The notes beneath the pieces were generated by a model. It was not told the origin of the DNA, made no database searches, and saw only the letters and a list, made by a program, of their open reading frames with translations. Made by a program: the position numbers and the translations under genes. Positions 14,248 to 37,569 of a stretch of 45,971 nt of DNA are shown piece after piece; the first letter of the stretch is position 1; the number at the start of each line of letters is the position of its first letter. The DNA comes from Stramenopiles sp. TOSAG23-2 (Eukaryota): contig LT649285.1 of NCBI GenBank assembly GCA_900128395.1, positions 1 through 45,971 of the forward strand. Direction: 5' to 3'.

Positions 14248-15873
14248 GGAAAAAATGTGGAGTATGCCCACATAACACTGCAGGCAATATGGGAGCGGTA
14301 GGGGGAAGGAGGAATATCCAAAGTTCGGATAGTAGAACAAAGGCTTTTGAAGATGCAACAGAATTTCCGATTATTAATCCGTATGGAGAATTATTGGAAG
14401 TTGAGATGCTAGCAGAGATAAGAAAAGATCCAGTCGAGCAGCAACAGAAGTTTATAGCGGTAATTGCTGAAGATAAACTCCCAAACGTACCAGCAAGATT
14501 ACGATATGCATTTGCGAATAAGAAAACCGACGGTGCTGATTATTTAGCTGGGATTCCACCTCCAAGCCCACTCCTCCAGAACAATGAAAAGGCTAATAAA
14601 ATAATGAGACCAATCATTGAAAAGTTTGTACAAATGATTCAAAATGAAACTACAGATATGAAATATGATCCAATGGTGTCTAATGGTAAGTTAATTCTAT
14701 TCCTCGCAACCTATAAATGATATTTTCTCTAACACATACTTCTTTCATACGCTACGCTCCACAGGTTGGGAGACATATATCAACCCGGAGAGATTTAAGA
14801 AAGAGGTTGATTATATGAAAACAAATTTCTTATTTTGTGGTATTTCTAATGATGTCGAGACAGCAAATGCTTTTGCTAGGGTGGAAATGAATGGCAAATC
14901 AATTTTGTTGACGCGAGATGAAAATATGAAATTTCACGCATTTGAAAATGTTTGTAGGCATCGAGGTATGGAAGTTGTAACAAAAGAAAAACCTCGTGGA
15001 AAATCACAAGTCCATGTATGCCCATATCATAGTTGGGCTTATGGAAGCAATGGAGAGTTGTTGAATGTACCGTTTGAAAAAGGATTTGAGGGCAATGCAA
15101 AAGTCGATTTGGAGAATCGTAATTTGATTCCATTACCAAGTGCTGAAATTGCAGGGACACTGTGGGTTGTAAGTCATCCTGATGAGACAAAAAATTATAA
15201 TGAGATGGCAAAGGATATTTTAAATCAAAAATTGCAAGAAGAATTATCAGCATTTAATGTTGGAAAAAACTTCGCAGTCGTTTCTCAAGAGATGCGTCTT
15301 AATGCAAACTGGAAACTGCCGATTGATACGTTTGGAGAAGCATATCATTTTAAAACTTTGCATCCGTTTTTACGACAAGTATTCATGAGGAATCGTATGT
15401 TGTTCAATGGTTATGATGATTCAAATGGGAATGAGAAAAATTCATGTATGGTTCTAGGAGCGAATACTTTACAATTGATGGCAGATGGAGATATCCCAAA
15501 AGAAAAATGGTTTGACACTTCACCATTTAGCCATGCAACGCCTACATACATGTTTTCTCCTAACACAAGTTTTATTGTAAATGCCAATGGATTAAGCGTT
15601 ACACAAGTATTTCCAACTGATAAAGTAGATGAATGTATTGTAAGAATGACCCAGTATGCTGGTTCAAATCCTTCCAAATTTTCAACTCAACAAAGAAAAA
15701 GTATTGCTCAAAACTTTGGAGGCTTCTTGGATATTGTAGCTACGGAGGATTTTGAAATTTTAGCAAAAATGAACCGTAGCTTTAAAGAATCACCTCATGC
15801 AGAAACTATTTTTGGGCGAAATGAACCTGCTTTAACATATAGGCATAAAATGTTTTTAAATATGTTAAAATAA
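14142..15873 (+). CDS. Rieske non-heme iron oxygenase alpha subunit (aromatic-ring-hydroxylating/choline monooxygenase-like); exons 14142-14685 and 14765-15873
   Basis: Rieske motif NVCRHRG...CPYHSW and mononuclear iron ligands EAYHFKTLH...ED. Splicing 14686-14764 joins the two ORFs in frame (...VSNG-WETYINPERFKKE...). Confidence 0.9.
14686..14764 (+). other. GT-AG intron, 79 nt (subfamily A)
   Basis: gtaagttaattctattcc...atattttctctaacac...ccacag. Restores the frame; phase 1, G|GT. Confidence 0.9.
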
Positions 15874-16147
15874 AATCATATGCCAAAAAAATGATACAAT
15901 ATTATATATATATATATACGCCTCATTTTGACAAGGATTCTTGTCGATCGATACGAGAATTGCTCAGATTGGATATATAGAGTATATAGTCACATCTAAA
16001 ATGTTTTTAAATATGTTAAAATAAAATCATATGCCAAAAAAATGATACAATATTATATATATATATATACGCCTCATTTTGACAAGGATTCTTGTCGATC
16101 GATACGAGAATTGCTCAGATTGGATATATAGAGTATATAGTCACATC
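15846..16147. repeat. Tandem duplication, period 151 bp, over the Rieske gene stop codon
   Basis: taaaatgtttttaaatatg... at 15846 and 15997. Confidence 0.95.
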
Positions 16148-16196
16148 GTGTCATCGTGTGTCGTCTGTTTTTTTTTTTTCAATCCAGTAGCAATAG

Positions 16197-16500
16197 AAAT
16201 ACATCCAGGGAATTTGCTTTTTTGCAATCTGGCAATCCTGTTGCCTGACAGAGAGGTCTCTGCCCCTGGTTGTGTCATCTGGGATTCCTAAAGATTTTAC
16301 GAATTATGTTTTTTTAAATATGCATACATAAAAAATAAAAATTATTTAAAATACATCCAGGGAATTTGCTTTTTTGCAATCTGGCAATCCTGTTGCCTGA
16401 CAGAGAGGTCTCTGCCCCTGGTTGTGTCATCTGGGATTCCTAAAGATTTTACGAATTATGTTTTTTTAAATATGCATACATAAAAAATAAAAATTATTTA
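16197..16500. repeat. Tandem duplication, period 152 bp
   Basis: aaatacatccagggaatttgc... at 16197 and 16349. Confidence 0.95.
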
Positions 16501-16665
16501 ATTTTGAATATCATACGAAGTTCATAAAAAAGAATTATCATGAGCAAATTGAACCAAAATAAATCATGTGTGCGTGTGTGTAAAATATTAAAAAATTAAA
16601 TTAATAATACGAATATTCGTGTATGACTTTTATTATACTCGTAAATATATTCTCGCTCACCAACT

Positions 16666-17387
16666 TTAACGTGGGTCATCCCATGTCCAAGAACCATCAG
16701 GTGCTTGGAAACACCAACGCTCTCCTCGTTTCTCTTTATTCCACCCTGGAGGTAAGTAGCCACCTTCTGCCATAATTTTCTTTTCTTTCTCTCGTTGTTT
16801 CATTGCAAGCAATGCACGTTTCTTTTCCAAACGTTGTTTCGCCATTTCTTTTTTTTTTGCTTGTTTTATTTTCTCTTGCTTAAGTTTTAATTCTTCTTTT
16901 TTTCTCTCCATTTTCTTTTTTCTCAATCTACGTTTAGCAAATATCATTCTTATTCGCGTTTGTACTTTAATTGCAGCTTCTGATTGTTTTCTAAATTCTC
17001 TTTCGTCTTCTCTTTGTTTCAATTCTTTACGTGCTTTGTATCTTCTAAATGCCATTTGTAAAATTAATGCGTTTTGATAACCAGTACAAGAGTAGTAGAC
17101 ATTTTGCCAGCTATTTAAGCGTTCGTAATGATCAATATTATGCTTTCCAAGCTCTGTTATACAAATGAAATGTACCCATCAGCTTCTATCCTCATATCTC
17201 TAACTTGTTGTATTGAATCTAAATTATATACATGAACTAGTTGAGCATCAATTTTATCTTGTTTTAACTTTCTCGATGCTTCCAATTCCTCTGTAGAAAC
17301 ACCATGATCATTCTTATTATTACTAGCACTTTTACTAGCTTTGGGTTTTTCAACTTTTACTCTTTTCTTTCTACGTTTACGTACCAT
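16666..17387 (-). CDS. IQ-motif and WW-domain protein, with a frameshift near 17160-17180
   Basis: IQ motifs ALILQMAFRRYKARK and AAIKVQTRIRMIFAKRR, and C-terminal WW domain LPPGW...WTWDDPR. The 17387 and 17055 ORFs overlap briefly in different frames. Confidence 0.7.
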
Positions 17388-18034
17388 TATTTTTATTAAT
17401 GATTATAAAATTAAATTATTTACGGATTCTTTGTATGTGCGGGAGTGTTTTATTGATAATTCAATATATTATGTATCAACTACTCTCTCCCTCTCTCTCT
17501 CTCTCTATATATATATATATGTATGTATGATTTCCCAATATCGCTTCACTATATAGATGTGCAACGCCGCGTGCATGTCTTGTTATTATAATAAAATGCA
17601 AGTTTTTGTTTTTTGTCATAAAATATAAAATAATCTATGTGCCTATATTTTATTTTTTAACGTGCTGCTGTCGTGTGGTGCTGTCCAGGCTGCATATCTG
17701 AAGAAACTGTTTTTTGTTGCACACAGGTAGTGCGGTAGTGCTGTGTCTATAATATTATAAAATTGCAAATATCATTGTGCATCCTCCATCTCAGCCGTTA
17801 TTATTATTCTGTGAAAACATCATAATTTTTTACTGGTACTAGCTATTATTAGTTGTGTTTTGAAAAAACATAAACACCATATCATACATGTCATATACCC
17901 CCGAGTACGATGTATGGTATGAATACGATATATGTATACTCGATCGATCGATATAGATTTATATACCCTTAGAAATTACATTTATTTATAATATATATAT
18001 ATATGCATATACAAGAACACTATTAATTAACAAA

Positions 18035-21000
18035 ATGCCATATGATATAGGAAGTATTGTAAATTATTCAGATAGTCAAGATAATAGTGTGAAAAGAGCA
18101 AAAGTTATAAGTGTTGAGAAGAATGGTGCTAAACATAAAATAGAATATACGACAATTGAAGGTTCAGTAAAGATCGAAGTTGTCGATACATCTCAATTGA
18201 ATTTACCAAAAGATATACATTTCCAAGCTCCTGTTATACATGAAGGTCAAAAACAAGGTAGAAGAGGTAGTGTACAAATTTATGCACGGCCCGTTACAAT
18301 AAATGGGAGAAAACAAAGTTTGGAACAAAAAGTAAAGGAAACTCCAGCACAACGTCAGCGTAGAAAAAATAAAAGAAATAAATACAACAGTAGAGGACGA
18401 CATTACGAAGGAAAAACCCATGGCCATGTAGCACGTGCAAATAGCAGAGAAATAGAAACTCATCAAGTGACTAAAGCAGCAATTACAATACATTCATGGG
18501 CACGTAGACATCTTGTAAGAAAACATTTAAGAGAAAAGCATAACGCTTCTATAATCATTCAAAAGTACACCCGGAGATACGCAGCTGAATATCAGCAAGC
18601 CTTGCGCGCCGCAAGGGATGGGAGAATTAGGTATTTAATGTTTATCAGCAAGCATATTAAATTAGACCATCTAAAAGATAGAAATAATAAAACAATTTTA
18701 CATGTTATTTGTGATGTAGACCATGTTACGTCGAAAACGTTTAATCAACGTTTCAAAAGTGCATCTTGGGTGAAAAAAAAGTATCCTAGCCTGTTAGAAA
18801 AAAAAGATAAATCTGGCCATACTGGCTCCTGGGCATTGCAGGTTTACGCTGCGTGCGTTATTCAAACCATTCATCGCTCTGTTCGAAGTCGTATGAATGT
18901 AATGTTCGAAAGCGCGCGCCGTGGAAAGTTAGGGGCATTGAAAGTTCTTCTTAAATATTCAAACGCATCAGATAAGTTATATCCTGATTCACACGGATCG
19001 ACATTGTTACATTTAGCAGCTACATGTAAACATAGAGAAAATGCTTCTGAATGTATAAAATATATTTCGAAAAAATATAAACGAATGGTAGCTACGAAGG
19101 ATAAAGATGGTCGTTTACCTTCACATATTGCATCTTTTTATTGTTCTGGAAACAATAATAAATGCGATGAAGTTATTAAAACATTTTTAACGATTGATGA
19201 GGATAAATCATTTTTGACGAAGGATAAATATAATCAAGAACCAATTGATTATATATCAAAAGCTGGAGATTTAGCAACAATACTTTTTTTAATCGAAAAA
19301 TCTTCTCAAATATATAGCAAGTTTGTCACTGAAGATAAGATGAAAAAAATGATCTCATCCTATGCATCATGGTCTTCATATACTGATCTGGTAAAAAATC
19401 GTAGTAATCGTGTAAACGTGGATTTTAATAGCGATAGTAGCACTAATTTTACATTTGATTTAAATAGCAGCGTTACAAGCTCGATGATGAAACATGTAGA
19501 AAATTATGAAGGTATGGTCAGCTTTCCACTTTTTAAACGATTTCTTTCTTTTGAAAGCGATAATGTATATTTCTTTACCAGTCCTGTAGAATGGAATGCA
19601 CCACGGCATAATAAAATATCTAATTCGCATATAAAAAAACCAAAATTTTGTCCCTCTAAATATTTTCTTTACTTCGAGATGTGTTTGCATGGATTTTTAG
19701 GAGAAACATTTGATTTAAAAGTTGGATTTACAAATGACGCGGAATGGAAACCACTGACTGACAGCGCGTTGATAAATGAACTTGCATACGAAGAAGATTT
19801 AGAAGAAGTATTAAAACATTGGAATACAAATACGAATAATATGGATACTCATCCTGTTGAAAAAGAATCAAATTTCTTCAATGTTAACATATCCAATTTA
19901 TGCAAAACACATAAGGTACATAATGTTTCGAGAACCTCCAATGTTGTTGGCTGTGGCTGGGATCCAAACGATAGTAAATTATTTTTATGCATCAACGGTA
20001 AATTGATCAATGAAAAAGAATTGCAAATGCCGTCTACTTGTTCTTTACGCCCTGGATTTAGTTTCAACAAAGAGTCTTTTAAAAACGTACTTCGAGCGAT
20101 GGGTGGAGATGCATGTAAGATTGAAATCAATTTTGGTAGAAAGCCTTTTGTTTACGTACCAGCATGGAAAGAAAAACTTGAACGAGTCCAAATGTTGAAT
20201 ATAAATCCTCATTTAAAAAATCAATTAGGATTTTCATTGGAACGAAGACCAGGTATAAGTGGCAATAGTTGGAGTTGTAACAATATTGTGTATCAATGGT
20301 GCTCTGCAATACATAAATCAAACTCGTATGGCACATTGAAACAAAATAGAATGAAATTATTCACAGTATATCCGTTAATTCATGATATAGTAAATAGCAA
20401 TTTAAGCCGAGTACAGGAAATTATGGGTGCAAGTGAAAATAAATATTTTGATGAAATGGATCTTCGCTCAACAAACCATTTAATTAATATCAGCAATGAG
20501 ACTGATGCTCGTAGTTTGGCTAATCAACAAGATGGTTACTGCCTTTCAACATGGCCAGTAGAGCCAACAAATAGGAGTATTTTACATATTGCAAGTACAG
20601 TAACTTCGAGCACAGAAATTCTCGAGTTTCTCCTTGCTATTCGACCTGATGATGATGTAATGTCAAAAGTAGATATTGATGGATGTACTCCATTGCATAT
20701 TGCTGCACGTATGGGCAACACCCCAGCATTAGAGCGCCTGTGCAAGACTTTGGTGGCTAAAATTTCATCCGCTAAGGACTCCCAATATGCATTGAAGAAA
20801 ATCATGCAATTGAAATCTAATGGTGGTATGAATATGTTACACCACGCTGTCATATCTGGTAATATAGATACAATCGATTATGTCTTAAGTAAAAACGAAA
20901 AGATATATCGACATTTAAGCAACGATCATAATCAAATTTACGAGGTGGAAGAGAATGGCAAATTAAGTTGGTCTATGTTGAAGTCAGCTCCGATACATTA

Positions 21001-23140
21001 TGCAGTATTCATAGGGTGTGGCATTTTGCCAGCTGGAAGCTGCTATTTAAATATATCATCGTATGAACGAATGAAAAGAGGCAACAATGAGGATAGGCTC
21101 GAAACTTCGATTGAACTATTTAGAAAATTTTCCTCTATCAGTGAAAAAGTGCTACATCAAACTGATTTAAAAGACCGTGATGCAAAAAAACTTGCGAAGG
21201 ATTTGAAAAATGCGGTTGGTCTTTCAATCGGGACAATAGCTTGTAGTGAAGGTATGGCTATAGTTACAAGGGACAACAACCACGCGTTTAAAAAATTCAA
21301 TCGCATAGGCGATCAAGTGATAATAGCAGCTTGTCACAAGTCAATAAATGGAGAATATACAATAAGCGGTTCTATGAGTAAGAGTATAGAATTAAAAACG
21401 CATTTTGATGAACGGTTTGAACATACGTACCATGGCGGTCTCTTAACTTCAAAAGATATTTCAGCGACTAGTGTAGGACCTTTAATTATACCAAGTTTAA
21501 TTGGTGGAGATTTGTCTCAAATTAAAAATAATTGTAATCGTATGACAAGTGTCTTATCTGACATTCTAAACAATGCAATAGATTCAATGTGGAGAAAGAC
21601 ATTCCAAAAGGAGAAGAAGGAAATTGCATATGGCGCTGAAGACAATGCAAATCGCATGGAAGAAGAGGAAATTGAAATGATAAATCAGAAAATTTTACGG
21701 GCAAAAAAAGAAAAAGAAGCTCGTTTAGAGGCAGCTCGTTTGCGGGAAATAGAATTTCTAGCAGAAAGGAATCGTTTAGCTAAAGAGCGTAAAAAAATAG
21801 AAATGGAAATTTTAGAAGAGAAAAAGTTGATTAAATCTATTAAAAAAACTACCGCTGCAAAGCAGAAAGTAATTGCAGAAAAAATTAATAATGATGACAA
21901 TGCTAACAAGCAAAGCAAGGAGAAAATTGTTAGCACAAAACCAACAAAAGAGCCCCCATTGAAGAAAAAAAATAAGAAGAAAAATAAGAAAATCAAAAAG
22001 AAAGGTACAGGCAAGTTGAAAATAAAGAAGGATTCGGATGTAGAAATTTTTTTAGCAACTGCAACACCAAAGGATAAACCAATGGAAGTAGTACTTGAAA
22101 ACAAGGAAAATGCAAGCAAGATGAAAGGTGACAACAATACAGCTAATGAGGAAGAACAAGACGAAGCGGAGAACGATGATTTTCAATTTGACGTTTCAGG
22201 TGGGGATGAATCAGCACCACCACCACCACCAATAAATAACAAGGACTCTATAAATGTAAAAATATTACCTAAAAATACAAAAGGGAACAATAATATTCAG
22301 AAATCTCCTCAACAAAAACTAATGGAAACGTCTGATTTTGAAGTCAATAATGTTGATGAAAATAATTTAACTCTCTTAGCCAGAACAGCGAAAGGGTCAA
22401 CTCCAAAAAATAATAAACCAACAAACAACTACGATGAAACAGAAGAAAAAACGCTAGAAGATTCTCTTGAACAGAAATCGTTAGAAGAGTTACGAAGAAT
22501 GTTAAAGCGTGCTCTTTATAATGAATCTATCGTACGGCAAGCAAATCATCTAGTAAAAACATTGCGAGAAACTGGGCTACAAAACTTTGGAATGACAGTA
22601 GATGCACTAGATCAAGCAAGCGAAGCTTTTGTTGATTCAAATGCGCTTCCAACTATGTATTTAGATAACAAGCCAATTCAAGCATGGTCATGGTCTGGTG
22701 TATATGAGGATATCGTACGTATCGACGAGGATTTATTTAAAGATGAGAATGACAAAATTGAAGAAATAGAAAAAGAAAATAAAGTAAGAAATGCCAAACT
22801 TGAACGTACACTAGACAAGTTTGAACTTGAGACCCAAAAAGCAACTAGAGCAATGAATAAATATGCAGAAAAGCAAAAGAAAATACATCGCAATAAAGAT
22901 TTATTTTCCTACTCCTTTGATAATAATAAACCTGCACCAAAACAACCAGCAAAACCAATATCAATCACCTTGACAAATAGTGACCTAACACCAAAAGAAT
23001 CTAGAGTTGTAAAAAGTTCATTGACTAAAACAAAAGGAATGCAAAATTGGGCGAACAGAATTAAATCAATGAGAAGTAACAAAAGTGAAAATCCGTGGGT
23101 ATCAGAAGATGACAAAAAAAAAAGGAACAAGGAAAAGTAA
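18035..23140 (+). CDS. Large ankyrin-repeat / IQ-motif / SPRY-like protein
   Basis: 1701-aa intronless ORF. Ankyrin motifs (GSTLLHLAA, GCTPLHIAA, GMNMLHHAV), IQ-like motifs (AAITIHSWARRH, ASIIIQKYTRRY), SPRY-like segment (YFEM...VVGCGWD...LFLCING...INFGRKPF) and a charged C-terminus. Confidence 0.9.
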   Translation: MPYDIGSIVNYSDSQDNSVKRAKVISVEKNGAKHKIEYTTIEGSVKIEVVDTSQLNLPKDIHFQAPVIHEGQKQGRRGSVQIYARPVTINGRKQSLEQKVKETPAQRQRRKNKRNKYNSRGRHYEGKTHGHVARANSREIETHQVTKAAITIHSWARRHLVRKHLREKHNASIIIQKYTRRYAAEYQQALRAARDGRIRYLMFISKHIKLDHLKDRNNKTILHVICDVDHVTSKTFNQRFKSASWVKKKYPSLLEKKDKSGHTGSWALQVYAACVIQTIHRSVRSRMNVMFESARRGKLGALKVLLKYSNASDKLYPDSHGSTLLHLAATCKHRENASECIKYISKKYKRMVATKDKDGRLPSHIASFYCSGNNNKCDEVIKTFLTIDEDKSFLTKDKYNQEPIDYISKAGDLATILFLIEKSSQIYSKFVTEDKMKKMISSYASWSSYTDLVKNRSNRVNVDFNSDSSTNFTFDLNSSVTSSMMKHVENYEGMVSFPLFKRFLSFESDNVYFFTSPVEWNAPRHNKISNSHIKKPKFCPSKYFLYFEMCLHGFLGETFDLKVGFTNDAEWKPLTDSALINELAYEEDLEEVLKHWNTNTNNMDTHPVEKESNFFNVNISNLCKTHKVHNVSRTSNVVGCGWDPNDSKLFLCINGKLINEKELQMPSTCSLRPGFSFNKESFKNVLRAMGGDACKIEINFGRKPFVYVPAWKEKLERVQMLNINPHLKNQLGFSLERRPGISGNSWSCNNIVYQWCSAIHKSNSYGTLKQNRMKLFTVYPLIHDIVNSNLSRVQEIMGASENKYFDEMDLRSTNHLINISNETDARSLANQQDGYCLSTWPVEPTNRSILHIASTVTSSTEILEFLLAIRPDDDVMSKVDIDGCTPLHIAARMGNTPALERLCKTLVAKISSAKDSQYALKKIMQLKSNGGMNMLHHAVISGNIDTIDYVLSKNEKIYRHLSNDHNQIYEVEENGKLSWSMLKSAPIHYAVFIGCGILPAGSCYLNISSYERMKRGNNEDRLETSIELFRKFSSISEKVLHQTDLKDRDAKKLAKDLKNAVGLSIGTIACSEGMAIVTRDNNHAFKKFNRIGDQVIIAACHKSINGEYTISGSMSKSIELKTHFDERFEHTYHGGLLTSKDISATSVGPLIIPSLIGGDLSQIKNNCNRMTSVLSDILNNAIDSMWRKTFQKEKKEIAYGAEDNANRMEEEEIEMINQKILRAKKEKEARLEAARLREIEFLAERNRLAKERKKIEMEILEEKKLIKSIKKTTAAKQKVIAEKINNDDNANKQSKEKIVSTKPTKEPPLKKKNKKKNKKIKKKGTGKLKIKKDSDVEIFLATATPKDKPMEVVLENKENASKMKGDNNTANEEEQDEAENDDFQFDVSGGDESAPPPPPINNKDSINVKILPKNTKGNNNIQKSPQQKLMETSDFEVNNVDENNLTLLARTAKGSTPKNNKPTNNYDETEEKTLEDSLEQKSLEELRRMLKRALYNESIVRQANHLVKTLRETGLQNFGMTVDALDQASEAFVDSNALPTMYLDNKPIQAWSWSGVYEDIVRIDEDLFKDENDKIEEIEKENKVRNAKLERTLDKFELETQKATRAMNKYAEKQKKIHRNKDLFSYSFDNNKPAPKQPAKPISITLTNSDLTPKESRVVKSSLTKTKGMQNWANRIKSMRSNKSENPWVSEDDKKKRNKEK

Positions 23141-23548
23141 TTGTGCTATAAATTTTAAATATTTGTGCCTTAGTGCTTGTAGAAGTGTTTACCATTAATA
23201 TTTTTTTATTTGAGAAATCTAATCATAGATATCCTCTTCTTCAAAAAAATTATTACCTCCTTGGTATTAATACTTGGTACTATTATTTTTCGTAAAACAC
23301 GTGATATAATACCTGTATTATAATAGGAAGATACATTTGGTATTAATACTAATACACTGTACTAATTTTTATACGGTGTTATTATGGTTGTTAATAATAT
23401 ATATTGAATATTATTTATTATTTATTCTGGTACTCATCAAATATATATGTGCATATTAAATAGATATATATATATGTAAACATATACATATCATAGAAAA
23501 CATAGAAATAGATTTATACACATAAATAATCCAAATAATAACCAAACA

Positions 23549-25693: not shown

Positions 25694-26386
25694 GAAAACT
25701 CATTTTTGTACTCTATATACATAAACACGATGTGTGTTATTTAAAAACATCTCTCTATGAGACTCTAGAGAAATATTTACCAGTACCTTTTTAAACTAGA
25801 TTAATTTTTTATATATTATATTTAATTTTAAAAAATAAAAAGAAATAATGCTATGGTGGTATCGGGCATAAGTTGCCCGGATACTTGACGTATTCTACGG
25901 CCTCTATCTAAAATATTGACCATTAATTTTATACTGTTTGTACTCTTATTTACCTATGAAAAACTGTGTAATGGATGAGCGATCACACTTTTTCACAAAT
26001 AATTGGTCTATTTCAGGTCCTCCAATGCTTTGTTATAATCTCCGAACCTAGAAGGATCTAGGAGCTGACCTTCGACCCCGGAAATCGACTTATCTCACTT
26101 TATTGGGCCGGACCATTTCCAGATCGAAAAATTGAAAATAAAAATGTTTTTACATGCCTTGGTTTTGAAAAAAATAAAAAAAAATAAATAATTGCTTCAT
26201 GTTTGGTCAATAACGTGTATCTCTGCAAGTTATTGGCCAATATTAAATCTAAATATATGTGCTAGAAGGTGTATATGTGGCCTACCCAATACAAAAATAT
26301 GTTGCTATAATGGAATAGTCATCGTTTTTATATAGATGTGTATAGTTTAATATATTATAACAAACGAATATTTTTTGATGATGGTC

Positions 26387-26580
26387 CATTTTAGCATATA
26401 AAAGGCATATTTTTGCGCTTTTTTTAGATGAAATGTTCATAAAGTGAGAGACACGATCGCGTCAGCGATAGTTAGTGATAATGCATTTTAGCATATAAAA
26501 GGCATATTTTTGCGCTTTTTTTAGATGAAATGTTCATAAAGTGAGAGACACGATCGCGTCATCGATAGTTAGTGATAATG
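26387..26580. repeat. Tandem duplication, period 97 bp
   Basis: cattttagcatataaaaggc... at 26387 and 26484, one mismatch. Confidence 0.95.
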
Positions 26581-26901
26581 TAAAAGTAGCAACGGAAATG
26601 AATAATAAATATAATAATTGATGATCATCCTTGAGATGGTGGTCAATGAAGCATTTTTAAAAAAGTTATGGGTAATTAAAGTATTGAAAAGTTGTGTTGA
26701 GAGTGTGAGATAAAAATATTAACTTCAATAATGCATTATTTTTATTAAATTCCATGAACATCTGAACGTCTCTCTGATATAAATTAAGGTATTTGTAAAT
26801 TAATATGAACACAGCATAACGATATTTCAGTGGACTACACACATATCCATTTGACATATATATGTGAAAATATATATATATCTATGCATTTTCAGCAGGA
26901 A

Positions 26902-27129
26902 CAGAGGAAATTACACCCATATACAACGAGAAATTCAAAATTTAAAATAAAAACTTTAAAATAGGTTAAATAGACCAAGTTTAATCTATCTTAGATGTAT
27001 GTGAAGTTTTTACACCAGAGGAAATTACACCCATATACAACGAGAAATTCAAAATTTAAAATAAAAACTTTAAAATAGGTTAAATAGACCAAGTTTAATC
27101 TATCTTAGATGTATGTGAAGTTTTTACAC
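26902..27129. repeat. Tandem duplication, period 114 bp
   Basis: cagaggaaattacaccc... at 26902 and 27016. Confidence 0.95.
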
Positions 27130-27771
27130 TCATATCTCATCTAGATCTTTTTTTATTTAAAATCGTTTCTGGGCAACTTATGCCCGATACCACCATACGT
27201 ATTTTATTGTCCATTTAAGCTCAGAACAGTGAAGGATATTTTCATATTTGGTTTTATGTAGTGTTGTATATGATCTATATATATGAGAAATATACAATGT
27301 ACAATATGAGTGTATTAATGTATATATATATATATATATTGTACATTGGACATATGTATGATGGTTACACATGTACTTATTAATATTTGTTTTATGATGT
27401 ATTCTGTACACACATTTGTTGTTGTTTGTTCGAAGTAGTTTTTTACAACAACATGTATATTATTTCATCGTGTTCGTGTGTGCACGTGTGTTTCGTGTAG
27501 CTAGTGGTGTTGCATGCTGGCGGGCCCAGCTGGCATGGCTCTGTCGCTCTGTCGTTGATCTCGCAGCAGCAGCATTGTGCTATACCTTCCACAACAAATT
27601 AAAACTATTCACTATGGGGAAAATTTATAGTAAAATACAACTACACAGTATATAGCGTACTCTAGCTACCAATTAGTCTACACGTATGCTCAGTGCTACG
27701 CGAGGAGGAGGAATTAGAATTAAGATAATAAATGGATAATATACTGGATACCACTTGAACTTATAATTTCA

Positions 27772-27983
27772 ATAATTAATCTCGAGACTAGATAGATAGA
27801 TAGATATAATAGATAGATTGATCGACAGTTATAAATAGTGGTACAACGAAATATAAAAGGTACATCCAAGTAAAATTATAATTAATCTCGAGACTAGATA
27901 GATAGATAGATATAATAGATAGATTGATCGACAGTTATAAATAGTGGTACAACGAAATATAAAAGGTACATCCAAGTAAAATT
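27772..27983. repeat. Tandem duplication, period 106 bp
   Basis: ataattaatctcgagactag... at 27772 and 27878. Confidence 0.95.
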
Positions 27984-28161
27984 GCTTAGTAACGGTCGTT
28001 GTAATATTTCTACTTTTTGTAAGCACTAGTAACTTTCGCTACAAGAAATTGTTGTAACTTTTTCATTGAAACAGTATCTGTCATCATTATACATCATCTA
28101 AAAACCATATACGTATTTGTAATATTTATTTATACAATTATTGAAAATACAAGAAGAAGCT

Positions 28162-30703
28162 ATGGCTACAGTAACTGATGAACGAGTTTCCTCAACGGAG
28201 GTGGAAACCAAATCTATAGGGATGGATGGTGGCTCAGGTTAGTAAATTCTATTCCCCTAAACCTAAAAAAGATATCCTCTCTAACACATCATCCACAGGT
28301 CATTCCAACTGTATGAAGTGCAGGTTCGCGTGCCATACATTTGGGCCAATCAGCACAGCATATTTTGTAATTGGAGTATCAGGTTTGTATGTAGGTAATT
28401 TAAGAGCAGATGCAAATTACATTGTGCCATTTTCACTTGTTGTTCGATTTTATCTAATTTTCTTATCTTTATTCCTCGGATGGTTTCAAGATGCTGAGGT
28501 TATGAGGCCATGCTTTGAAAAAGTTGGTTGCAAAAGATCAAAATGGGGGCGGCGAGCACCACATGCAACTTATGCTTTGGCTTGCCTATTCATCTTGAGC
28601 TTTTTTACTTATAGGCCATCGAAATGGGCTGATATGGCTACAGAAGTCAAATCAACAAGAACGTTAAATGGACTAGATATAAGTAGAATTCGCGTCTATA
28701 GCGAGAGTAATAATTATGGCGAAAGTGACGTATGGGAAGATTTTGATTTCTCTAAGCCATACACTGATTGTTCAAAAAAAATGGATGTAACATCTAGTGC
28801 AACAAATGGAACAATCTATCACTTCAATGAAACACGTACGACAGCAAATGGTATAGAAGTAAGTAGATAAATTCTAGTCTTACCTATTTCTACATCCCGT
28901 TTTAAATCCCCCCAGTTAAAAAAAACACATTCGTTCATGAATATAATCTATATTCCGATTCCTCTTCATCCGATTCTGATTCTGATTCAAGCGATAACGG
29001 TGTTTCAAATAAATTCTATCTTACCTAAATCTAAGAAGAATATCCTCTCATCTAACACATCACTCTTTCATATATGTTACACTATATAGTTGCCAATATT
29101 TGGAAATCGAATTTGTGAAGCATTAGTTGCAAAAAATTCCGTTTGCTGGCCTGGACCAACTGGATCAAGTAAAGTAGGTGATGGCGGGCCACGACGTTGT
29201 GCTTTTATAGCTAGTGAGGTGATGGGAATTCATTTTTTCTTCATGGCAATTTTAGGATATTATTTTTGTGAGACTTGTTGGCAAAGTGGCACTGCTGCAA
29301 CATATGAAGTATATCCATGGAAAGAAGAACGAACACAATTGAAAACATTTCATGGCCCAATATTCAGTTTGGGGCTACTTCAATATTTTATTGCATTTGC
29401 ATTTGTGACAACACAATCAGAATTAGGAGCTCGGCCGAATGGTGCAATAGGATTACGTAATACGATTGCAATTTTCGTTGCTGTTGTAAATCTTCCAAGT
29501 TTCATGTCAATTGAGATGCTGAAAGATGCAAGGCAATCTCATGAAAAAGATATGAAGGCAAAAAATCCAATTCCGGAATATAAGGATATTTTAACTGGCC
29601 CATCAACACGGCCAATGAGATTTATTTATTTGAATACTTTTTTTAGCAATGTAGGCGGGAGTATAACCAATGGCACATTTTGGTTCCTGTGTTATTATGT
29701 GTGGGCCATCCCAAGAGAAAGTGCTGGATTCATTCTATTTGCCTTTGCAATCTCTGGATGGATCGTTCAAGTTGTTTTTTCTATTATATGGGGACATTTA
29801 GTATTTGGTGTGAAGTCAAAAAAAGGAAGAGAACATTCAATTGATCCAAGAAAGTACACATTAATTTGTGAGGCGTTACGAATTGTTGTCAACATTGGCC
29901 TTTGGTTCACGTTGTTGGCACCTATGCCTTATGAGGACATGGTGAATGGAAAAAAATCTACTGGTAAGTAAAACCATCCCCGTGTAAACTTATAGTAGAA
30001 AAAATCATATTCCCTAACATTTTATAACCTGATTATACTATGTTTCACAGGTATACCTTTCATATTGACAGCTTGGATTGGCGGACCTTTTGCATCAATG
30101 TTACCATTTTGGGAAGCAGCAGCATGGGGATGGGGCATGGATTATGATACTCAACATCACATTGCAGCTGGTACACGGAAAAGAAGAGAAGCATATCTGC
30201 GATCGGTCTCAGCTGGAATTCGCGGAGTTGGTAATTTTATCGGAATCGCAATAGTGAATTCTTTAACATTAGGTGCTGCACCAGTGTGTGATACTACATT
30301 AGACACAGAAACGCAGACGAGAGACTGTCAATCTTCTTTATATGCAATGGCATTTGCAGGATCAATTGTGTTAATGACATGTCGTTGGTTTGTTATATTC
30401 TTCTATCCTCTAACAGGGGAACCGTTAAAAAACTTATATTTGAAACAAGGAGAAGTTCATCTTGCCCATAAAGACACCGCATCCTGGAAAACGGTGGTAG
30501 ATCCGTCGACTGTCAATGCTGCTATAGTTGTTTCTCAAAAGCCAGTTGCTCAAGTGATGGAAGTTACATTACCAGAAGGTGCTACTCCAGGTATGGAATT
30601 GGAATATCCTTTAAGCAATGGAACAAAAGTAAAAGTAGTTGTTCAAGAAGGGCAAAAGGCTGGTGATAAGGTGACCATAAGTATGAATGGCAATGTTGCA
30701 TAA
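28162..30703 (+). CDS. GPH/MFS_2-family (MelB/MFSD2-like) transporter; exons 28162-28237, 28299-28858, 29090-29963, 30051-30703
   Basis: Multiple TM helices and family-like motifs RSKWGRRAP, EVYPWKEERTQL and GTRKRREAY. Three GT-AG introns join the ORF-track pieces in frame. C-terminal VTLPEGATPG...VQEGQKAG module. Confidence 0.8.
28238..28298 (+). other. GT-AG intron, 61 nt (subfamily A)
   Basis: gttagtaaattctattcc...gatatcctctctaacac...ccacag. Phase 1, AG|GT...AG|GT. Confidence 0.85.
28859..29089 (+). other. GT-AG intron, 231 nt (subfamily A with internal insertion)
   Basis: gtaagtagataaattcta...ataaattctatc...aatatcctctcatctaacac...tatag. Phase 0, frame preserved. Confidence 0.85.
29964..30050 (+). 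other. GT-AG intron, 87 nt (diverged subfamily A)
   Basis: gtaagtaaaaccatcc...atattccctaaca...tcacag. Phase 1, G|GT. Confidence 0.88.
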
Positions 30704-30707
30704 AATA

Positions 30708-33110
30708 TCAATACAGCGCAGATATATAATTTCCTTTCGAGTTAAATTCAAGATGTAGATCGCCCGCTCGTTTCATAGAATTAACAACAGCACATTGGCA
30801 TAAATTATATAAGTCAGCACCTGTAAAATTCGAGGTCATTTTTGACAAACGCATTGCCATGTCAGTTAAATCAATATCTTCTTCTACATTCATATTTGAT
30901 ATGTATAGCTTCAAAATACTTTCTCTATCGGATTGACTTGGCAGCCCTACGTGAACTACGGTTTCAAAACGACCTGGTCGCAACAAAGATGGATCCATTA
31001 AATCAATTCTATTTGTTGCAGCAAGTACAACAATTCCATTATTTTTTACATTCAAATTATCCATTTCCATCATTAATTGTGCAATCATGCTAGTTCCTAA
31101 TCTACCAGAATTTTCACGATTACCAAATATAGCTTGTATTTCATCTAAAAACACAACGCAAGGGCTTTTTTGCCGTGCGACACGAAAAAGCTCCGCTACT
31201 TTTGCTTCACTACTACCTACATCGCCTTTCATTATATCCGTTATAGAAGCGGATATGAATGCAACGCCACTATATCCAGCTACTGCTTTTGCTAATAATG
31301 TCTTTCCAGTTCCTGGTGGGCCATATAATAATACACCATTCGACGATGATATGTTTAACCTTTGAAATTCTTCCGGATATAAATATGGCCAAACGACATG
31401 TTCTTCCAATACACGTTTTGCTTTTTCCAAGCCACCAACTGATTGCCATGACGGCAAATCATCTTTCGCTTCCATTCCAGAATAATCAATATTGTTTTGT
31501 CGAACCACTCCCATTTTACGCTTGGATGACAACGATGCCAATCCAATAGACAAAGCTTCATTCCACAATGAATATATATTAAATGACGGGGCATTTAAAT
31601 TTATTTTGCGTTCATGGCAAATTAATTTCATTTGTCCAAATACTATTTTTATGTCACTACGAGTGAAACCATTGCATTGCTTGACCATTTTTTCTATCCA
31701 TTTGTTTTCACTTTGGTTTTTATTGTCATCATCATTATACAACAATATGTTTTTTAAAATATTTAAATAATATGATATTATATTAAAGTAATCCCGTGCG
31801 GTAGATGTACCCATATCAATATGAATATCAAATTTTTCTTGCAATTTGGCATCTAAATGACTAATAGACGATACTGTGCATCCAATTCGTAACGGCAACA
31901 TACCTGTACCATCATAGTTACGTTGAAATTGATTTATTTCTTCCATGATAGTAAGAATTTCATTTTTAGCTAGGATTCTATCTGCGGAGCTAGGATTATT
32001 TGAGGAGCTATCGAAATCAAAATGATTTTTTATCATTTTTGGCAAAATTAAATCTAAATCTTCTAAAATAATTAGACATCCATTTTGTTTATCTTGATTA
32101 TTGATGTTGTTGGATATTGCTTTCACTGCTTTGGTAAATGTATCTTTTATGGCCCATGATGTATCTCCATCATATTGCTTATTTGATATTAACATCATAT
32201 TGATGAACCAAACGTTTACATTCCGCTCCTTTGATATTCTTTTTATTAATTGTTTTTTCCCACTTCCTGGTATACCTGAAAGCATGAATGACGTAGTAGA
32301 CGGTGTTTTTTTGTATGTAATAACGTTATTATTATTTCGGACACTAAAAGCTGTATCAAACCAATTTTCAAGCTCTGCAATGGAATTTTTATTAAATGAC
32401 ATTTTCCATGAAAACAATTTAAGATTATTTTGATTTTGATGATTCCTTGCATCAGTTAACAAGCTCCTTGTACCAGCAGAATCATTTGAAACAATATCAA
32501 TTATACTGTTTAATAAAACTACTCCACCTTTCATATTATTTTCATCGTCCACATTTTCATAATTATTTTGAACAGAATTACAGGAAATTTTTAATACATT
32601 TGAAAAATTCCAAGTTGCATTTAAGTTGACATATTTATTTTTCAATTTATCTAACATATATTGATTTATATCAAGAGTTTTTTCTACTTTCCGTTTCATT
32701 GCTGCATCCATTGAAAGGCGCATGTGTATAATGGAAGGTAATGTATTGGTAAATATTTTTTCAACTTTGACTTTAAAATTGTTTACATCTATGTTTTCTT
32801 TAATAACCGTCGTTTCCCCAATATATAATGCACATGTATTAATAAGCAATTTAAAGTCTAATGACATACGGGCAACAAATTTATATTTCAATGTTTCAAA
32901 TTGATCGTTGATATTATCACAAGTTAATATATAAATAGTTACAAATTGATTATGTTCAAGTTCTAAGTTTTTCGCATTATATACATTTATTTTAATTGCC
33001 GGTTCTATTATTTTTGCATTTGATGATAATTTAAATTCTGTACATGTAAAAAGATGATGTTCATAGTTTTTATTGTTCTTGTTGTTGTTGGTGATATAAT
33101 TATTGCTCAT
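30708..33110 (-). CDS. CDC48/AFG2(SPATA5)-family double AAA+ ATPase
   Basis: Degenerate D1 (GIPGSGKK, IILEDLD) and intact D2 (VGGLE...GVLLYGPPGTGKT, VFLDE, AATNRIDLMDPSLLRPGRF). Confidence 0.88.
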   Translation of the reverse strand: MSNNYITNNNKNNKNYEHHLFTCTEFKLSSNAKIIEPAIKINVYNAKNLELEHNQFVTIYILTCDNINDQFETLKYKFVARMSLDFKLLINTCALYIGETTVIKENIDVNNFKVKVEKIFTNTLPSIIHMRLSMDAAMKRKVEKTLDINQYMLDKLKNKYVNLNATWNFSNVLKISCNSVQNNYENVDDENNMKGGVVLLNSIIDIVSNDSAGTRSLLTDARNHQNQNNLKLFSWKMSFNKNSIAELENWFDTAFSVRNNNNVITYKKTPSTTSFMLSGIPGSGKKQLIKRISKERNVNVWFINMMLISNKQYDGDTSWAIKDTFTKAVKAISNNINNQDKQNGCLIILEDLDLILPKMIKNHFDFDSSSNNPSSADRILAKNEILTIMEEINQFQRNYDGTGMLPLRIGCTVSSISHLDAKLQEKFDIHIDMGTSTARDYFNIISYYLNILKNILLYNDDDNKNQSENKWIEKMVKQCNGFTRSDIKIVFGQMKLICHERKINLNAPSFNIYSLWNEALSIGLASLSSKRKMGVVRQNNIDYSGMEAKDDLPSWQSVGGLEKAKRVLEEHVVWPYLYPEEFQRLNISSSNGVLLYGPPGTGKTLLAKAVAGYSGVAFISASITDIMKGDVGSSEAKVAELFRVARQKSPCVVFLDEIQAIFGNRENSGRLGTSMIAQLMMEMDNLNVKNNGIVVLAATNRIDLMDPSLLRPGRFETVVHVGLPSQSDRESILKLYISNMNVEEDIDLTDMAMRLSKMTSNFTGADLYNLCQCAVVNSMKRAGDLHLEFNSKGNYISALY

Positions 33111-33564
33111 ATTGATATAGCGAAATGGATCTGAAAGGATTGGATAGAAGATAATGAAATCTATTTATCTGTTTATATATATAATTATTTATATAATGTA
33201 TAGTGAGTATGTATTGATGATGATGTATATTTATTTGTTTTTAATCATCAATAGTAAGTAAGTAGAGAGATATAATACTGTACAAAAACATACAACAAAC
33301 TAAAGCACACTAAAACTAAAAAAACACTAAAACATAATAAAATAAAATTAATAAAGCTTATAATAAATATTATTAGCTTTATTAAATTATTGGAATTATA
33401 GTGGTGCTATATACCTCTCCTATTTTATCGAACAACAACTAATTACAATAAATATATATTATTTAAAAATAATAATACATATACATATATACATCACTTT
33501 CAATTTTCAAAACTACAAGAAAAAAATAATATTAATAGTTATACGAAAGTTAAATAGCGATATA

Positions 33565-34778
33565 ATGGAGGCATCAAAACAAGGACAACAACAAAACATT
33601 GGTGATCCACAACCTTGGTATGAAATAGATATAGTAATAACAAACTTATTTCAACATTTCAATGGAAAAGAAATATTAGCATGTCACTTAGTTAACAAAA
33701 CTTGGGCGAGACTATTATTTAATGTGAATAATGATAAAATACAACGTTGGAAATGGAAAATGTTACTAAAAGAAACATGGCCACAATTCAATGTCAATGT
33801 AAATGAAACGTATACAGGGAAAACGCTTCGTCAAGCATATGAACTTAGGCGATTACTTGAAGATAAAATCTTACGTGAACTATGGACTCCGAAATATGCT
33901 GATAGTTTTAAATTTGGAAAATATTCACGTTGGGTTGTCCCATACAAAGATGGAAAATTTATTCTGGATGTAGCGTATATTGTACAAATTTTGGCAACAT
34001 TTGCTCCAAAAGATTATTTAATTTTAGATGGTGCGGATAAAATTGAATATAACCCAGAACATAGTACATCGAGTGGACCATGGCCTGGATGGACGTTGCA
34101 CCGTCAAACAGATTTAATGAAAGATATTCAAGAGAATAATTCATTGAAAATAGACCAAGATGCATATGCTGCCATGATTATTTGCCAGAGTATATGTACA
34201 CATCGTTGGTATCGAACTGATAATGTTGAATATGAAACTATCTTTCATAATCAAGTTATGGATATTGCTCAACAGTGGAGCGAAGAAACAAAGAAAAATA
34301 GACTCGATTTTTTTGCAAAGTATCCACTTGATCGTAAGAAAAGGCATATGAATATTTCTTCAGTAAGTATATATATATATATAGATAAATTTCTAAATTT
34401 TATTTTTCACCTTCCTAACAAATATATACACAGATGGTTGTAGCTAGTTGTGGATGGTTGAAAGATAATATAAATAATAGCAATAAGAATCGCAATATAA
34501 ATGATGCAATAGATATCGTACGAAATACAAAAATACTAGCATTTTTATTGCAAAATAGAGATTCATTGAATGCTGTATTCTGGGATATCGACTCGATAAC
34601 TTGTCGCGGGATAGATTGCCTTGCAATTGGTAGATTTCGTCGATGGAATAATAAAGCTTATAGCCATCAACGTATGTCACCCCGACAATATCCACCCATG
34701 TTTAATATGAAGAAATTGGTGCATCATATTGATGTAAATTTCGATTGGAATGATATTTTTTCAATGTTTGGAAAATAA
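33565..34778 (+). CDS. F-box-like protein; exons 33565-34362 and 34434-34778
   Basis: N-terminal DIVITNLFQHFNGKEILACHLVNKTWARL fits an F-box. A phase-0 intron joins the two ORFs. Confidence 0.7.
34363..34433 (+). other. GT-AG intron, 71 nt (subfamily B)
   Basis: gtaagtat...ataaatttctaaattttatttttcaccttcctaacaaatatatacacag. Confidence 0.85.
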
Positions 34779-35196
34779 AAATAAATTTTTTTCTAAAATT
34801 TAATAAAATTTGAATAATATTTTTAAGAATATTGATCTGCTATAACAACAAGTTTGTCAATTTAGAATCATTTCGGAACTAAATTAGAATTTCTTTTAAT
34901 AGCAATTTTTTGTGCTTTTAAAGCTACAAATTGTCACCAAAAATAAAATGGATGAAAAGAGTAATATTTTTTTATTATATTCTTTGTTAATTTTGAACAT
35001 GCTATGCTTATGTTAAATTAAAACTCGAAAATTTCTTAATTGTGGGCTGTAAGGTAGCAGGTGAAGAGTAAGGGGATCGAGTAGCTACGCAAGCCGGGCA
35101 AGCACAATGGTGCAATAATGGTGCAATGGCCATAATTACCAATAATAGTGACTTTAATGGAATTATAACATTGGCCATTTTCCAGTATTGTTGTAC

Positions 35197-35555
35197 ATTG
35201 CTATTCCATTTTGAAGCAAGACTTTGAGTGTTGAAGATTTGACCTTAAAAAAGTCTCCGGGAAAAAAAAAAGTGTCCGAATTTTAAAAAAGTGATATAGG
35301 AATATTAAACTGTTTATACTTAGTAGAATAACACAATTATTTTTCTTTTCTTATATATTTAGGTTAGGCTTTAGCTTAGTAGTAGTTATGATAAAATATA
35401 TTAGTAAAGAAAATAATTGTGTTATTCTACTAAGTATAAACAGTTTAATATTCCTATATCACTTTTTTAAAATTCGGACACTTTTTTTTTTCCCGGAGAC
35501 TTTTTAAGGTCAAATCTTCAACACTCAATGTCTTGCTTCAAAATGGAATAGCAAT
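35197..35555. repeat. Long foldback inverted repeat (arms about 150-165 bp, short spacer)
   Basis: 35197-~35348 is the near-perfect reverse complement of ~35406-35555. Confidence 0.9.
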
Positions 35556-35585
35556 ATAATGCTAATCCTGGTAATGCGTTGCTAA

Positions 35586-35982
35586 CCTATAGGGGTGCAA
35601 AAACCTGGGCCATCGTATTCACCTGCTATAGTGGTATATACACTACATAGCATTATAATGGTATTACTATATTATATTTATTTAATAGGTACATACCATT
35701 GGCTACTGTCATTAATTTTATCAGTCCATTTTCGCAATTTGATGCTTATAACATAAATTATTAGATATTGATATATGGTTTTTGGCTATAATACAAAAGT
35801 TGCGAAAATCTCCTGCATTCCAATTCTTGGTTCTTGCCGTGAATCACTTCGTACTTATGGCTATACTAAATACCTGTAATATATCTATCAAACATTTACA
35901 ATGGTATGTCTATCTTGTATGCTATATCCATTGTATATATAGCAGCTGAATACGATGGACCAGGTTTTTGCACCCCTATAGG
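35586..35982. mobile_element. MITE with 45-bp TIRs, possibly piggyBac-type
   Basis: cctataggggtgcaaaaacctgggccatcgtattcacctgctata (35586-35630) matches the reverse complement of 35938-35982 with 2 mismatches. Flanks are CTAA and ATAA. Confidence 0.78.
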
Positions 35983-36114
35983 ATAATTGAAAAAAAAAAG
36001 ATTTTTTATATATTTATTTAAAATATCTCGGGATGATATATAAAATAATATACAAACGTAAACAATATATATATATATATTGTTAAAAGAAAACGTACAA
36101 AATCCTATTTCTCC

Positions 36115-36386
36115 TTTTTTGTTCTTCTTCTACAATCATTAACAAAATGATCCATATTAACCTTTTGACAACATCTGACACATATAATGATTTACAAGCG
36201 ATGAATCTATTTCAAACAATTGAAAATAAATATAATCATCACTTAAAAATTTTTTTGTTCTTCTTCTACAATCATTAACAAAATGATCCATATTAACCTT
36301 TTGACAACATCTGACACATATAATGATTTACAAGCGATGAATCTATTTCAAACAATTGAAAATAAATATAATCATCACTTAAAAAT
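36115..36386. repeat. Tandem duplication, period 136 bp, over the dehydrogenase start codon
   Basis: gttcttcttctacaatcattaacaaaatg... at 36121 and 36257. Confidence 0.95.
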
Positions 36387-37517
36387 TCACAAATATTTGA
36401 TAAATCCAACATCTCCAATGCCAAACGCAGAAATATTGGAGTCTTTGGACTGTATCGTTTTTGCATATGGTGAAGCTAGGCCTGTTTTGCCGGCTTTATT
36501 CCAATCCATAAATAAGGCGCCTAATTTGAAATTTATTAATGTTGGTATGTAATGCTCTATTCCACTAGACTTTGTAAATATCCTCTCTAACACTTTCCTC
36601 TTTCACGCTTTCAGGTTGGACAGGGACTGATGGAGTTAGGTGGAAAGATGCACGAAAACGCAACGTTGTTATAAAAAATAGTCCTGGAGTCAGTGCCATA
36701 CCCATAGCCCATTCGTCAATTGGTGCCGTGTTAATGTTAAGTAGAGGTTTTTTAAATTGGAGACGGTCTCAACGCTTGAAGGAATGGAAACCCTTACCTG
36801 GACACATTAGGGTTGTAGGAGATAATGTGTATGAAGATAGAAAAGTGGAAGTACGTATATGTATATCATAATAAATTCTAAATTTTATTATTTTTCACCT
36901 TCCTAACATATATATAAATGCCTCAAATTCATCCATGTATACATACATGATGATACACACAGTTAGTCGGCCAAAAAATGGTCATATTTGGATATGGTAG
37001 TATTGGGAGAGAAATTGCAAAGATAGCAAATGTATTAGGAATTCGTGTCATTGCAGTGCATCGAAACATTGAAAAAAGTTTAAATGATCCGTTTGTTGAA
37101 AAATCTGTTACTCCAAGTCAATTGAAAAGTGTTGTTTCCTCATGTGATTTCTTAATGAATTGTGCACCATTAAATGATGACACAAAGTATTTTATATCTG
37201 ACAATATTTTAGCATCGATGCCTCGAGGTTCATTTGTTCTCAATGTTGGAAGAGGGAAAACAATTGAAGAAGCTGCATTGATTAGACATTTACAAAGTCA
37301 ACATATAGCTGGTGCCTATTTAGATGTAGTTGATCAGGAGCCATTGGATGCAAATAGTGTTTTATGGGATATGGAAAATGTTATAATTTCACCACATAAT
37401 TCCCATCGCAGCGAGAAAACACGTGGGCGGAGTTTAAATTTGCTTCGTTCCAATTTATCCGAGTGGATTGAAGAGCAATATGGCGAAGAACTGGATAAAT
37501 TACGTATATATGTATAA
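36283..37517 (+). CDS. D-isomer-specific 2-hydroxyacid dehydrogenase; exons 36283-36544, 36615-36850, 36963-37517
   Basis: Spliced protein FINVGWTGTDGV...KNSPG...ELVGQKMVIFGYGSIG...NVGRG...AYLDV...EPL...ISPHNS carries the NAD-binding and catalytic R/E/H motifs. Confidence 0.92.
36545..36614 (+). other. GT-AG intron, 70 nt (subfamily A)
   Basis: gtatgtaatgctctattcc...aatatcctctctaacac...tttcag. Phase 1, G|GT. Confidence 0.9.
36851..36962 (+). other. GT-AG intron, 112 nt (subfamily B)
   Basis: gtacgtat...ataaattctaaattttattatttttcaccttcctaacatatatata...cacag. Phase 0. Confidence 0.9.
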
Positions 37518-37569
37518 AATTACACCTGTACAGGTGTATACCTATTTAAAATCAAAAATTACTGTGTAT

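Follow-up and report, generated by a model that had tools for sequence, protein, structure and literature searches.

A short, splice-site-bounded intron family very probably copied into many unrelated genes of an uncultured marine eukaryote

Seven introns interrupt four plus-strand genes of contig LT649285.1 (assembly GCA_900128395.1, Stramenopiles sp. TOSAG23-2), which we analyzed over its full 45,971 nt, hereafter the window. Four of these introns (I1, I2, I3 and, weakly, I6) belong to one family, family A, which is almost certainly an introner: a ~79-nt intron whose copies, judging by sequence, have reached many protein-coding genes with no relation to one another. In PMC9860276, introns count as introners if they resemble one another all the way to the two splice boundaries. 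Family A fits this definition: its similarity extends to both boundaries, its members lie in unrelated genes, and they are spliced, as RNA contigs document for I2 and I3. We count 42 family A sites, 38 outside the window and 4 within it, all in sense orientation and all flanked by open frames.

Relatedness among the window introns was assessed against 500 shuffles in which the 5' site, CTAAC, and the last 3 nt were held fixed. None of the 500 shuffles attained the similarity score of I1-I2, I2-I3, I2-I6, I3-I6, or I5-I7; 4 attained that of I1-I3 and 6 that of I1-I6. I4 did not rise above chance against any other window intron (scores reached by 65 to 412 of 500 shuffles), nor did any pairing of an A intron with I5 or I7 (30 to 469 of 500). 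Because of these outcomes, the window introns divide into family A with four members, a pair, family B, made up of I5 and I7, and the unrelated I4. A preliminary description of this DNA had proposed that all seven introns share internal sequence. Its subfamily A (14686, 28238, 28859, and 36545) was recovered by the shuffles, at 0-6 of 500 for every pair of I1, I2, I3, and I6, although I6 is a weak match to the hidden Markov model (HMM) of the family described below; its subfamily B (34363 and 36851) was recovered likewise, with an exact 18-mer in common. The proposal fails for the "more diverged copy at 29964" (I4), which neither exceeds the shuffles nor gives an HMM hit, and for a link between A and B, where similarity is nonsignificant. 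Within the window, the 16-mer that precedes the branch point has three occurrences when up to 3 mismatches are allowed (0.35 expected), and the B 18-mer also has three (0.09 expected); the third B match, at 633-650 on the minus strand, was read and rejected as an intron.

Outside the window, family A was traced in a single, stringent metagenome scan with a two-block pattern; a single 16-mer had matched only by chance in viral contigs. The scan gave 55 matches in 50 loci (labeled L; 230,338 nt in total), of which 52 are family copies—introns of ~80 nt with differing exon flanks—and 3 (L020, L029, and L051) look like chance, near the prior estimate. Together with 2 matches in the window, 49 of 57 were resolved to GT..AG junctions that restore reading frames, many with hundreds of open codons on each side, and merging loci represented in several assemblies left 34 distinct sites. 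The family A HMM was built from these 34 sites and added copies that the pattern had missed: L022 at 893, L017 at 10914, L033 at 3896, L038 at 5169, and, in the window, I3 and I6. The L033 and L038 copies were read on the minus strand. The HMM and manual checks together also contributed L050 and the L052 group, both between open frames.

Identity among copies ranges up to 100% (introns of L037 and L041; 98.8% for L019 and L065), with a pairwise median of 81%, and the flanks of four near-identical copy pairs had nothing in common beyond the intron in blastn and tblastx comparisons. These unrelated flanks, together with the 42 frame-restoring sense sites, bear out for family A the earlier suggestion that the introns are copies of a spreading intron. 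Other members show apparent decay while probably remaining spliceable: the copy at L017 10914-10995 is a GC-AG intron with the 5' site GCAAGT, and the copy at L052 471-562 (also in L054, L056, and L063) has lost its original GT (GGAGTA), a GT 15-21 nt upstream seemingly being used in its place. Contigs of DNA run X3 join the I2 5' block to the I3 tail with 12-14 other letters between them, and we list these as putative further family A copies in the sea. Searches of viral contigs returned 0 hits for the family A pattern and 15 for the pre-branch 16-mer, all chance matches in unrelated contexts; the 21-mer of the family A tail had 0 hits in the genome contigs collection.

The G-poor family A consensus of 79 nt (A 28, C 24, T 21, G 6; copies 61-93 nt) carries all the signals of an intron: a GTAAGT 5' site, a TCTAAC branch box, and a CACAG 3' site. 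In most copies the HMM match spans positions 1-79, and conservation stops precisely at the GT and the AG. The 30-nt tail 3' of the branch box, which lay outside the search pattern, averages 89% identity to the family consensus and reaches at least 24/30 in 29 of the 34 sites; I1 also has this tail. Across the 34 sites the 5' site is GTAAGT in 27, GTACGT in 4, GTTAGT in 2, and GTGCGT in 1. Six copies were folded, with minimum free energies of 0 to -4.3 kcal/mol (z -0.92 to +1.68), and the family A RNA is predicted to be essentially unstructured.

All seven window segments run from GT to AG and restore long open frames once their 3' ends are corrected, as the earlier claim that they are introns implies, and RNA exon joints confirm I2 and I3. 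Removal of I1 joins 182 open codons on the 5' side to 368 on the 3' side. RNA and DNA contigs were aligned to 17601-37600, a segment that leaves I1 outside. The I2 exon joint (28237/28299) is present in RNA contigs of runs X15 and X18, which come from different studies, and the I3 joint (28858/29090) in an RNA contig of X18; contigs of DNA run X3 contain neither joint. Among the RNA contig matches listed there were no exon joints for I4, I6, or I7, and no RNA contig on this segment crossed I5. One X18 RNA contig spans exactly 36614-36850 with unaligned letters at both ends, which fits splicing of I6 and I7 without demonstrating it; the same holds for I4, where RNA contig ends fall at 29966 and 30050. 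Across family A, the evidence for splicing is thus RNA contigs at I2 and I3 and frame restoration at the remaining 40 of the 42 sites.

The shared blocks might be signals that all introns of the lineage need for splicing—a lengthened branch site together with the TAAATTCTA box—rather than inherited sequence, and the preliminary description had offered the box as a required splicing element. Intron-poor lineages often have extended splicing signals; six of the seven window introns have some version of the box, and all introns seen have a strong YCTAAC branch box. However, five frame-restoring introns in the metagenome loci (Table 1) have neither the box nor the extended pre-branch block, and I4 and I6 in the window also lack the TAAATTCTA box. 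These five have ordinary signals (GTAAGT, GTATGT, or GTGTGT; a CTAAC branch box, TCTAAC in 4 of 5; and YAG). Because at least five frame-restoring introns are without family A sequence, the box is not required for splicing. Family A similarity moreover includes spacers and the 30-nt tail, which no signal needs, and the pre-branch block itself differs between subfamilies (21 ATATCC-type, 9 GAGAC-type, and 4 other among the 34 sites). The non-A introns largely refute the signal explanation, which we hold to be very improbable. By sequence comparison, introns of this lineage are in general marked by a 5' site resembling GTAAGT and by YCTAAC, a branch box of the yeast kind; TAAATTCTA and TCCTCTCTAAC are blocks that the copies inherited with the element and do not act as splicing signals in this lineage. 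A U12-type reading of the ATATCC block was also rejected: by consensus, the 5' site of a U12-type intron reads ATATCC or GTATCC and its branch site, TCCTTAAC, lies at 10-15 nt from the 3' site, and here the block is internal and the 5' sites are GTAAGT-like. Still less credible is an origin of the similarity in paralogous genes, gene conversion, or assembly artifacts instead of mobile introns. Perfect tandem duplications, maybe artifacts, do exist in the window, and I5 and I7 lie in neighboring genes; for family A this explanation is refuted by the dissimilar flanks of near-identical copies and by the recovery of copies from many independent metagenome assemblies, with splicing in RNA contigs of two studies.

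No target-site duplication (TSD) was detected at the 34 family A sites, where junction repeats averaged 1.32 against 1.33 in a permuted control; at two of the 34 the upstream exon ends as the downstream exon begins, over 2 nt in one case and 3 nt in the other. Nor were terminal inverted repeats detected, the two consensus ends agreeing in 6 of 25 positions. In 276 kb, searched with a pattern favoring intact copies, all 42 sites lie within genes and in sense orientation; 20-28% of the searched DNA lies outside open reading frames (ORFs) of at least 100 codons. Intron phases at the 34 sites divide 13, 10, and 11. The end of the upstream exon is biased, with A at -4 in 21 of 34 sites and G at -1 in 18, and G stands at +1 in 15 of 34. 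In 12 of the 34 sites ATG ends at -1 or -2, the intron thus directly following ATG or ATGG; the background is 6.8%. This ATG(G) bias could reflect target preference, selection for splicing, or, as speculation, pairing with the CATTCAT of the intron tail.

In family A the copied unit is very probably the intron itself, from GT to AG; each insertion would bring its own splice signals and would be removed by the ordinary spliceosome, leaving the host frame intact. On this reading the window holds an intact copy (I1), one with a short tail (I2), one with an internal duplication (I3), and a decayed one (I6), with I4 either unrelated or fully decayed. The absence of TSDs, of terminal inverted repeats, and of intergenic or antisense copies favors RNA-mediated intron transposition. 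These traits agree with those of elements to which reverse splicing or spliceosomal retrohoming has been ascribed (PMC4540971, PMC3609843) and disagree with transposon-type introners that have TSDs and inverted ends. The excised intron could be reverse-spliced into a transcript or into R-loop DNA and then copied into DNA; such a course has been put forward for fungal introner-like elements and in early Micromonas models. We treat the RNA route as a preferred inference and not as a result, because PMC9860276 warns about gene bias and PMC12130899 lists transposon types without hallmarks. For the introner claim and the RNA route taken jointly, we lean only slightly toward acceptance.

The same introner family may instead have spread as DNA, as a non-autonomous transposon that has no hallmarks or whose hallmarks escaped detection—a type without TSDs or inverted ends, for example—with selection purging unspliced antisense copies. 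PMC9860276 assigns DNA-transposon signatures to most introner families, reports families without both signatures outside fungi, and finds enrichment in genes to be common for DNA-type families, while PMC12130899 describes helitron- and crypton-derived introners that lack such signatures. The host genome contains inverted-repeat elements, and the bias at insertion sites (A at -4, G at -1, ATG) would suit a DNA element as well. What speaks against spread as DNA is the lack of TSDs and inverted ends in 34 sites, the finding of 0 of 42 sites in intergenic DNA though a fifth or more of what was searched lies outside long ORFs, and a conserved unit that ends exactly at GT and AG. We regard DNA spread as a real possibility that falls somewhat short of probable.

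Several points weigh against family A as an RNA-propagated introner. The loci may stem from several related species, so that the 42 sites are not a per-genome copy number. No intron presence/absence difference was found between overlapping loci, all of which had been selected by the copy itself. The search pattern demanded intact blocks and the branch box: conservation of the blocks in the 5' half is therefore partly forced, and decayed intergenic copies could have escaped it. The findings that speak for an RNA route are all negative ones. PMC9860276 argues that most introners are DNA transposons and that gene bias does not separate the mechanisms. The predicted lack of structure in family A RNA is unlike the fungal elements, and family B has only two copies, in neighboring genes. 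A still stronger account, in which family A would be an introner spreading today, outside fungi and by RNA alone, reinserted by the spliceosome preferentially after ATG(G) and the source of about half of all introns of the lineage, seems to us unlikely; if it were true, family A would be a natural system for testing spliceosomal retrohoming.

The four window members differ in how much of the family A unit they retain (Table 1). I1 matches the HMM over positions 1-79 (E value 8.7e-18), and its orthologous locus, L030, is 99% identical. I2 matches over positions 1-58 (E value 1.9e-14) and has an ortholog in L023. I6 has exactly the same 16-mer before the branch point as I2, and its HMM match is weak (E value 0.011). 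I3 is composite: a 5' site with its box occupies 28859-28892, and a second copy, running from box to 3' site, follows at about 29006-29089; the HMM match lies at 29010-29073 (E value 3.1e-07), and the L023 ortholog is 95.8% identical. Because both halves carry the same derived CTTACCTA variant, we take I3 to be, probably, one family A copy that gained ~150 nt by duplication or insertion within itself, and do not regard it as the outcome of two separate insertion events. Inside I3, the 84 nt at 28916-28999 are open in the gene frame; a CAG (28915) precedes them and a GTGTTT (29000) follows, and they might form a cassette exon flanked by two half introns derived from family A. The sole RNA contig seen at I3 skips all 231 nt, and a chance open frame of 28 codons is not unlikely.

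Table 1. Coordinates of window introns and their host genes, and frame-restoring introns of metagenome loci outside family A
Feature	Position	Strand	Description
I1	14686-14764	+	Full-length family A copy, 79 nt, phase 1
I2	28238-28298	+	Family A copy, 61 nt, tail shortened, phase 1
I3	28859-29089	+	Rearranged family A copy, 231 nt
I4	29964-30050	+	Ordinary intron, 87 nt, phase 1; GTAAGT, CCTAAC, CAG; frame restored
I5	34363-34433	+	Family B copy, 71 nt, phase 0; frame restored
I6	36545-36614	+	Degenerate family A copy, 70 nt, phase 1; frame restored
I7	36851-36962	+	Family B copy, 112 nt, phase 0; frame restored
Rieske/ring-hydroxylating oxygenase gene	14142-15873	+	Contains I1; Pfam families on exon 2
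Membrane-protein gene	28162-30703	+	I2 is the first intron; I3 and I4 further in
Gene of unknown family	33565-34779	+	Contains I5
D-2-hydroxyacid dehydrogenase gene	36283-37517	+	Contains I6 and I7; Pfam on exon 3
Non-A intron, L036/L048			118 nt; frame-restoring; without box or extended pre-branch block
Non-A intron, L038	4778		96 nt; frame-restoring; without box or extended pre-branch block
Non-A intron, L046	1569		110 nt; frame-restoring; without box or extended pre-branch block
Non-A intron, L047	656		340 nt; frame-restoring; without box or extended pre-branch block
Non-A intron, L049	473		143 nt; frame-restoring; without box or extended pre-branch block

Family B consists of two members, seen only in the window. 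I5 and I7 have a core of ~38 nt in common, including the exact 18-mer, and lie 2.4 kb apart in adjoining genes. Searches for further B copies gave 0 in the 230 kb of loci, 0 in viral contigs, and 0 in genome contigs, and comparison of B and I4 with the 230 kb of loci returned only TA-repeat matches and orthologues. Families A and B have the 9-nt TAAATTCTA in common, which may point to a distant common origin; their overall similarity is nonsignificant. I4 gave no hit to the family A HMM at E values up to 10, and BLAST matched it to nothing but its L023 ortholog. I4 could be the remains of a copy now wholly decayed, a reading that none of the tests run supports.

The host is an AT-rich, intron-poor, uncultured marine eukaryote. 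The window has 32% G+C, and its closely packed genes are eukaryotic, with products that include a VPS9 protein, an ankyrin protein, a glycosyltransferase, a PEX1-like AAA ATPase, and a teneurin-type EGF protein; tRNA and Rfam scans of the window gave no match. The PEX1-like AAA protein has environmental relatives at 99% and 56% identity only, and its nearest named protein is at 35%. Window sequence is present in public runs of two sorts: metagenomes from seawater and marine samples, and small runs of coded organisms. As the preliminary description had stated, the longest genes are intronless: the ORFs of 1701, 1629, 800, 714, 671, and 651 amino acids are uninterrupted. The ORF of 1629 amino acids, at 37570-42459 on the minus strand, encodes teneurin/tenascin-type EGF repeats and is situated in a segment with 44-45% G+C, against 32% for the window.

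The window also holds repeats and rearrangements of other kinds. An intergenic palindrome of ~365 nt with 96-nt perfect arms lies at 35194-35558, and an intergenic element of ~400 nt at 35583-35985, whose 48-nt ends are 94% complementary, resembles a miniature inverted-repeat transposable element. In DNA run X3, 34950-36017 is replaced by 32 other letters. X3 depth over 35610-36276 is 575, against ~17 for single-copy contigs, which makes part of this stretch a high-copy repeat. Perfect or near-perfect tandem duplications occupy 36115-36386 (136 nt), 26902-27129 (114 nt), 27772-27983 (106 nt), and 26379-26580 (~105 nt). The 136-nt duplication repeats the 5' end of the dehydrogenase gene, including the start, and is missing from one X3 contig (joint 36113/36250); it could be a strain difference or an artifact of assembly or amplification. 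A 99%-identical strain carries 700 extra nt (L023 750-1449) between two convergent genes, at window position 30728/30729. Intergenic 26003-26926 points to another dispersed repeat, because it is 89-94% identical to L055 8186-9005, on a contig otherwise unrelated, and has an X3 depth of about three times single-copy.

Introners are the main candidate source of new eukaryotic introns, and how hallmark-free families move is still debated. Family A offers a clean case for weighing RNA- against DNA-based intron gain: it is short, bounded by splice sites, genic and sense-only, predicted to be unstructured, and includes 100% identical copies. In a 46-kb sample taken without bias, it supplies four of the seven introns. 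Family A also indicates that much of the sparse intron set of this lineage is recent. For annotation, the family A model locates introns in the host's fragmentary contigs from marine metagenomes.

Micromonas introner elements are reportedly due to Worden and colleagues in 2009, and fungal introner-like elements to van der Burgt and colleagues in 2012. Introners are an established kind, and family A is a new family of them that may nonetheless already figure in the supplementary tables of PMC9860276 or PMC12130899. PMC9860276 reports introners in 17% of aquatic species, with 520 partial aquatic genomes also screened, and PMC12130899 reports 1,093 introner families in 201 species. Median family lengths run from 30 to 654 nt, and some families are without TSDs and inverted ends (PMC9860276, PMC12130899; Gozashti et al. 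2022, 2025). Family A resembles these broad-sense introners, common in aquatic unicellular eukaryotes, in its unrelated host genes and in similarity that reaches both splice boundaries; it differs in that most families described there carry DNA-transposon signatures and family A carries none.

The closest parallels are narrower. Fungal introner-like elements are also near-identical in unrelated genes, also carry all splicing signals, and also decay to ordinary-looking introns; PMC3609843 (Collemare et al. 2013) links them to reverse splicing or retrohoming, and PMC9860276 lists them as without TSDs and inverted ends. They have stable predicted structures, whereas family A is predicted to be essentially unstructured. 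They are also longer than regular introns; family A, at 61-93 nt against 96-340 nt for the five non-A locus introns and 71-112 nt for I4, I5, and I7, a small sample, is not clearly longer than other introns here. Their hosts are fungi, and that of family A is a marine protist, not shown to be fungal. Micromonas elements, for which PMC4540971 (Simmons et al. 2015) gives sense-only orientation and reverse-splicing models, are alike in lying within transcription units, in having some identical members, and in a marine picoeukaryote host. The family A host genome, however, is AT-rich and intron-poor. A stem-loop has been proposed for the Micromonas elements (PMC4540971), whereas none is predicted for family A, and some Micromonas families, according to PMC9860276, have TSDs and inverted ends, unlike family A.

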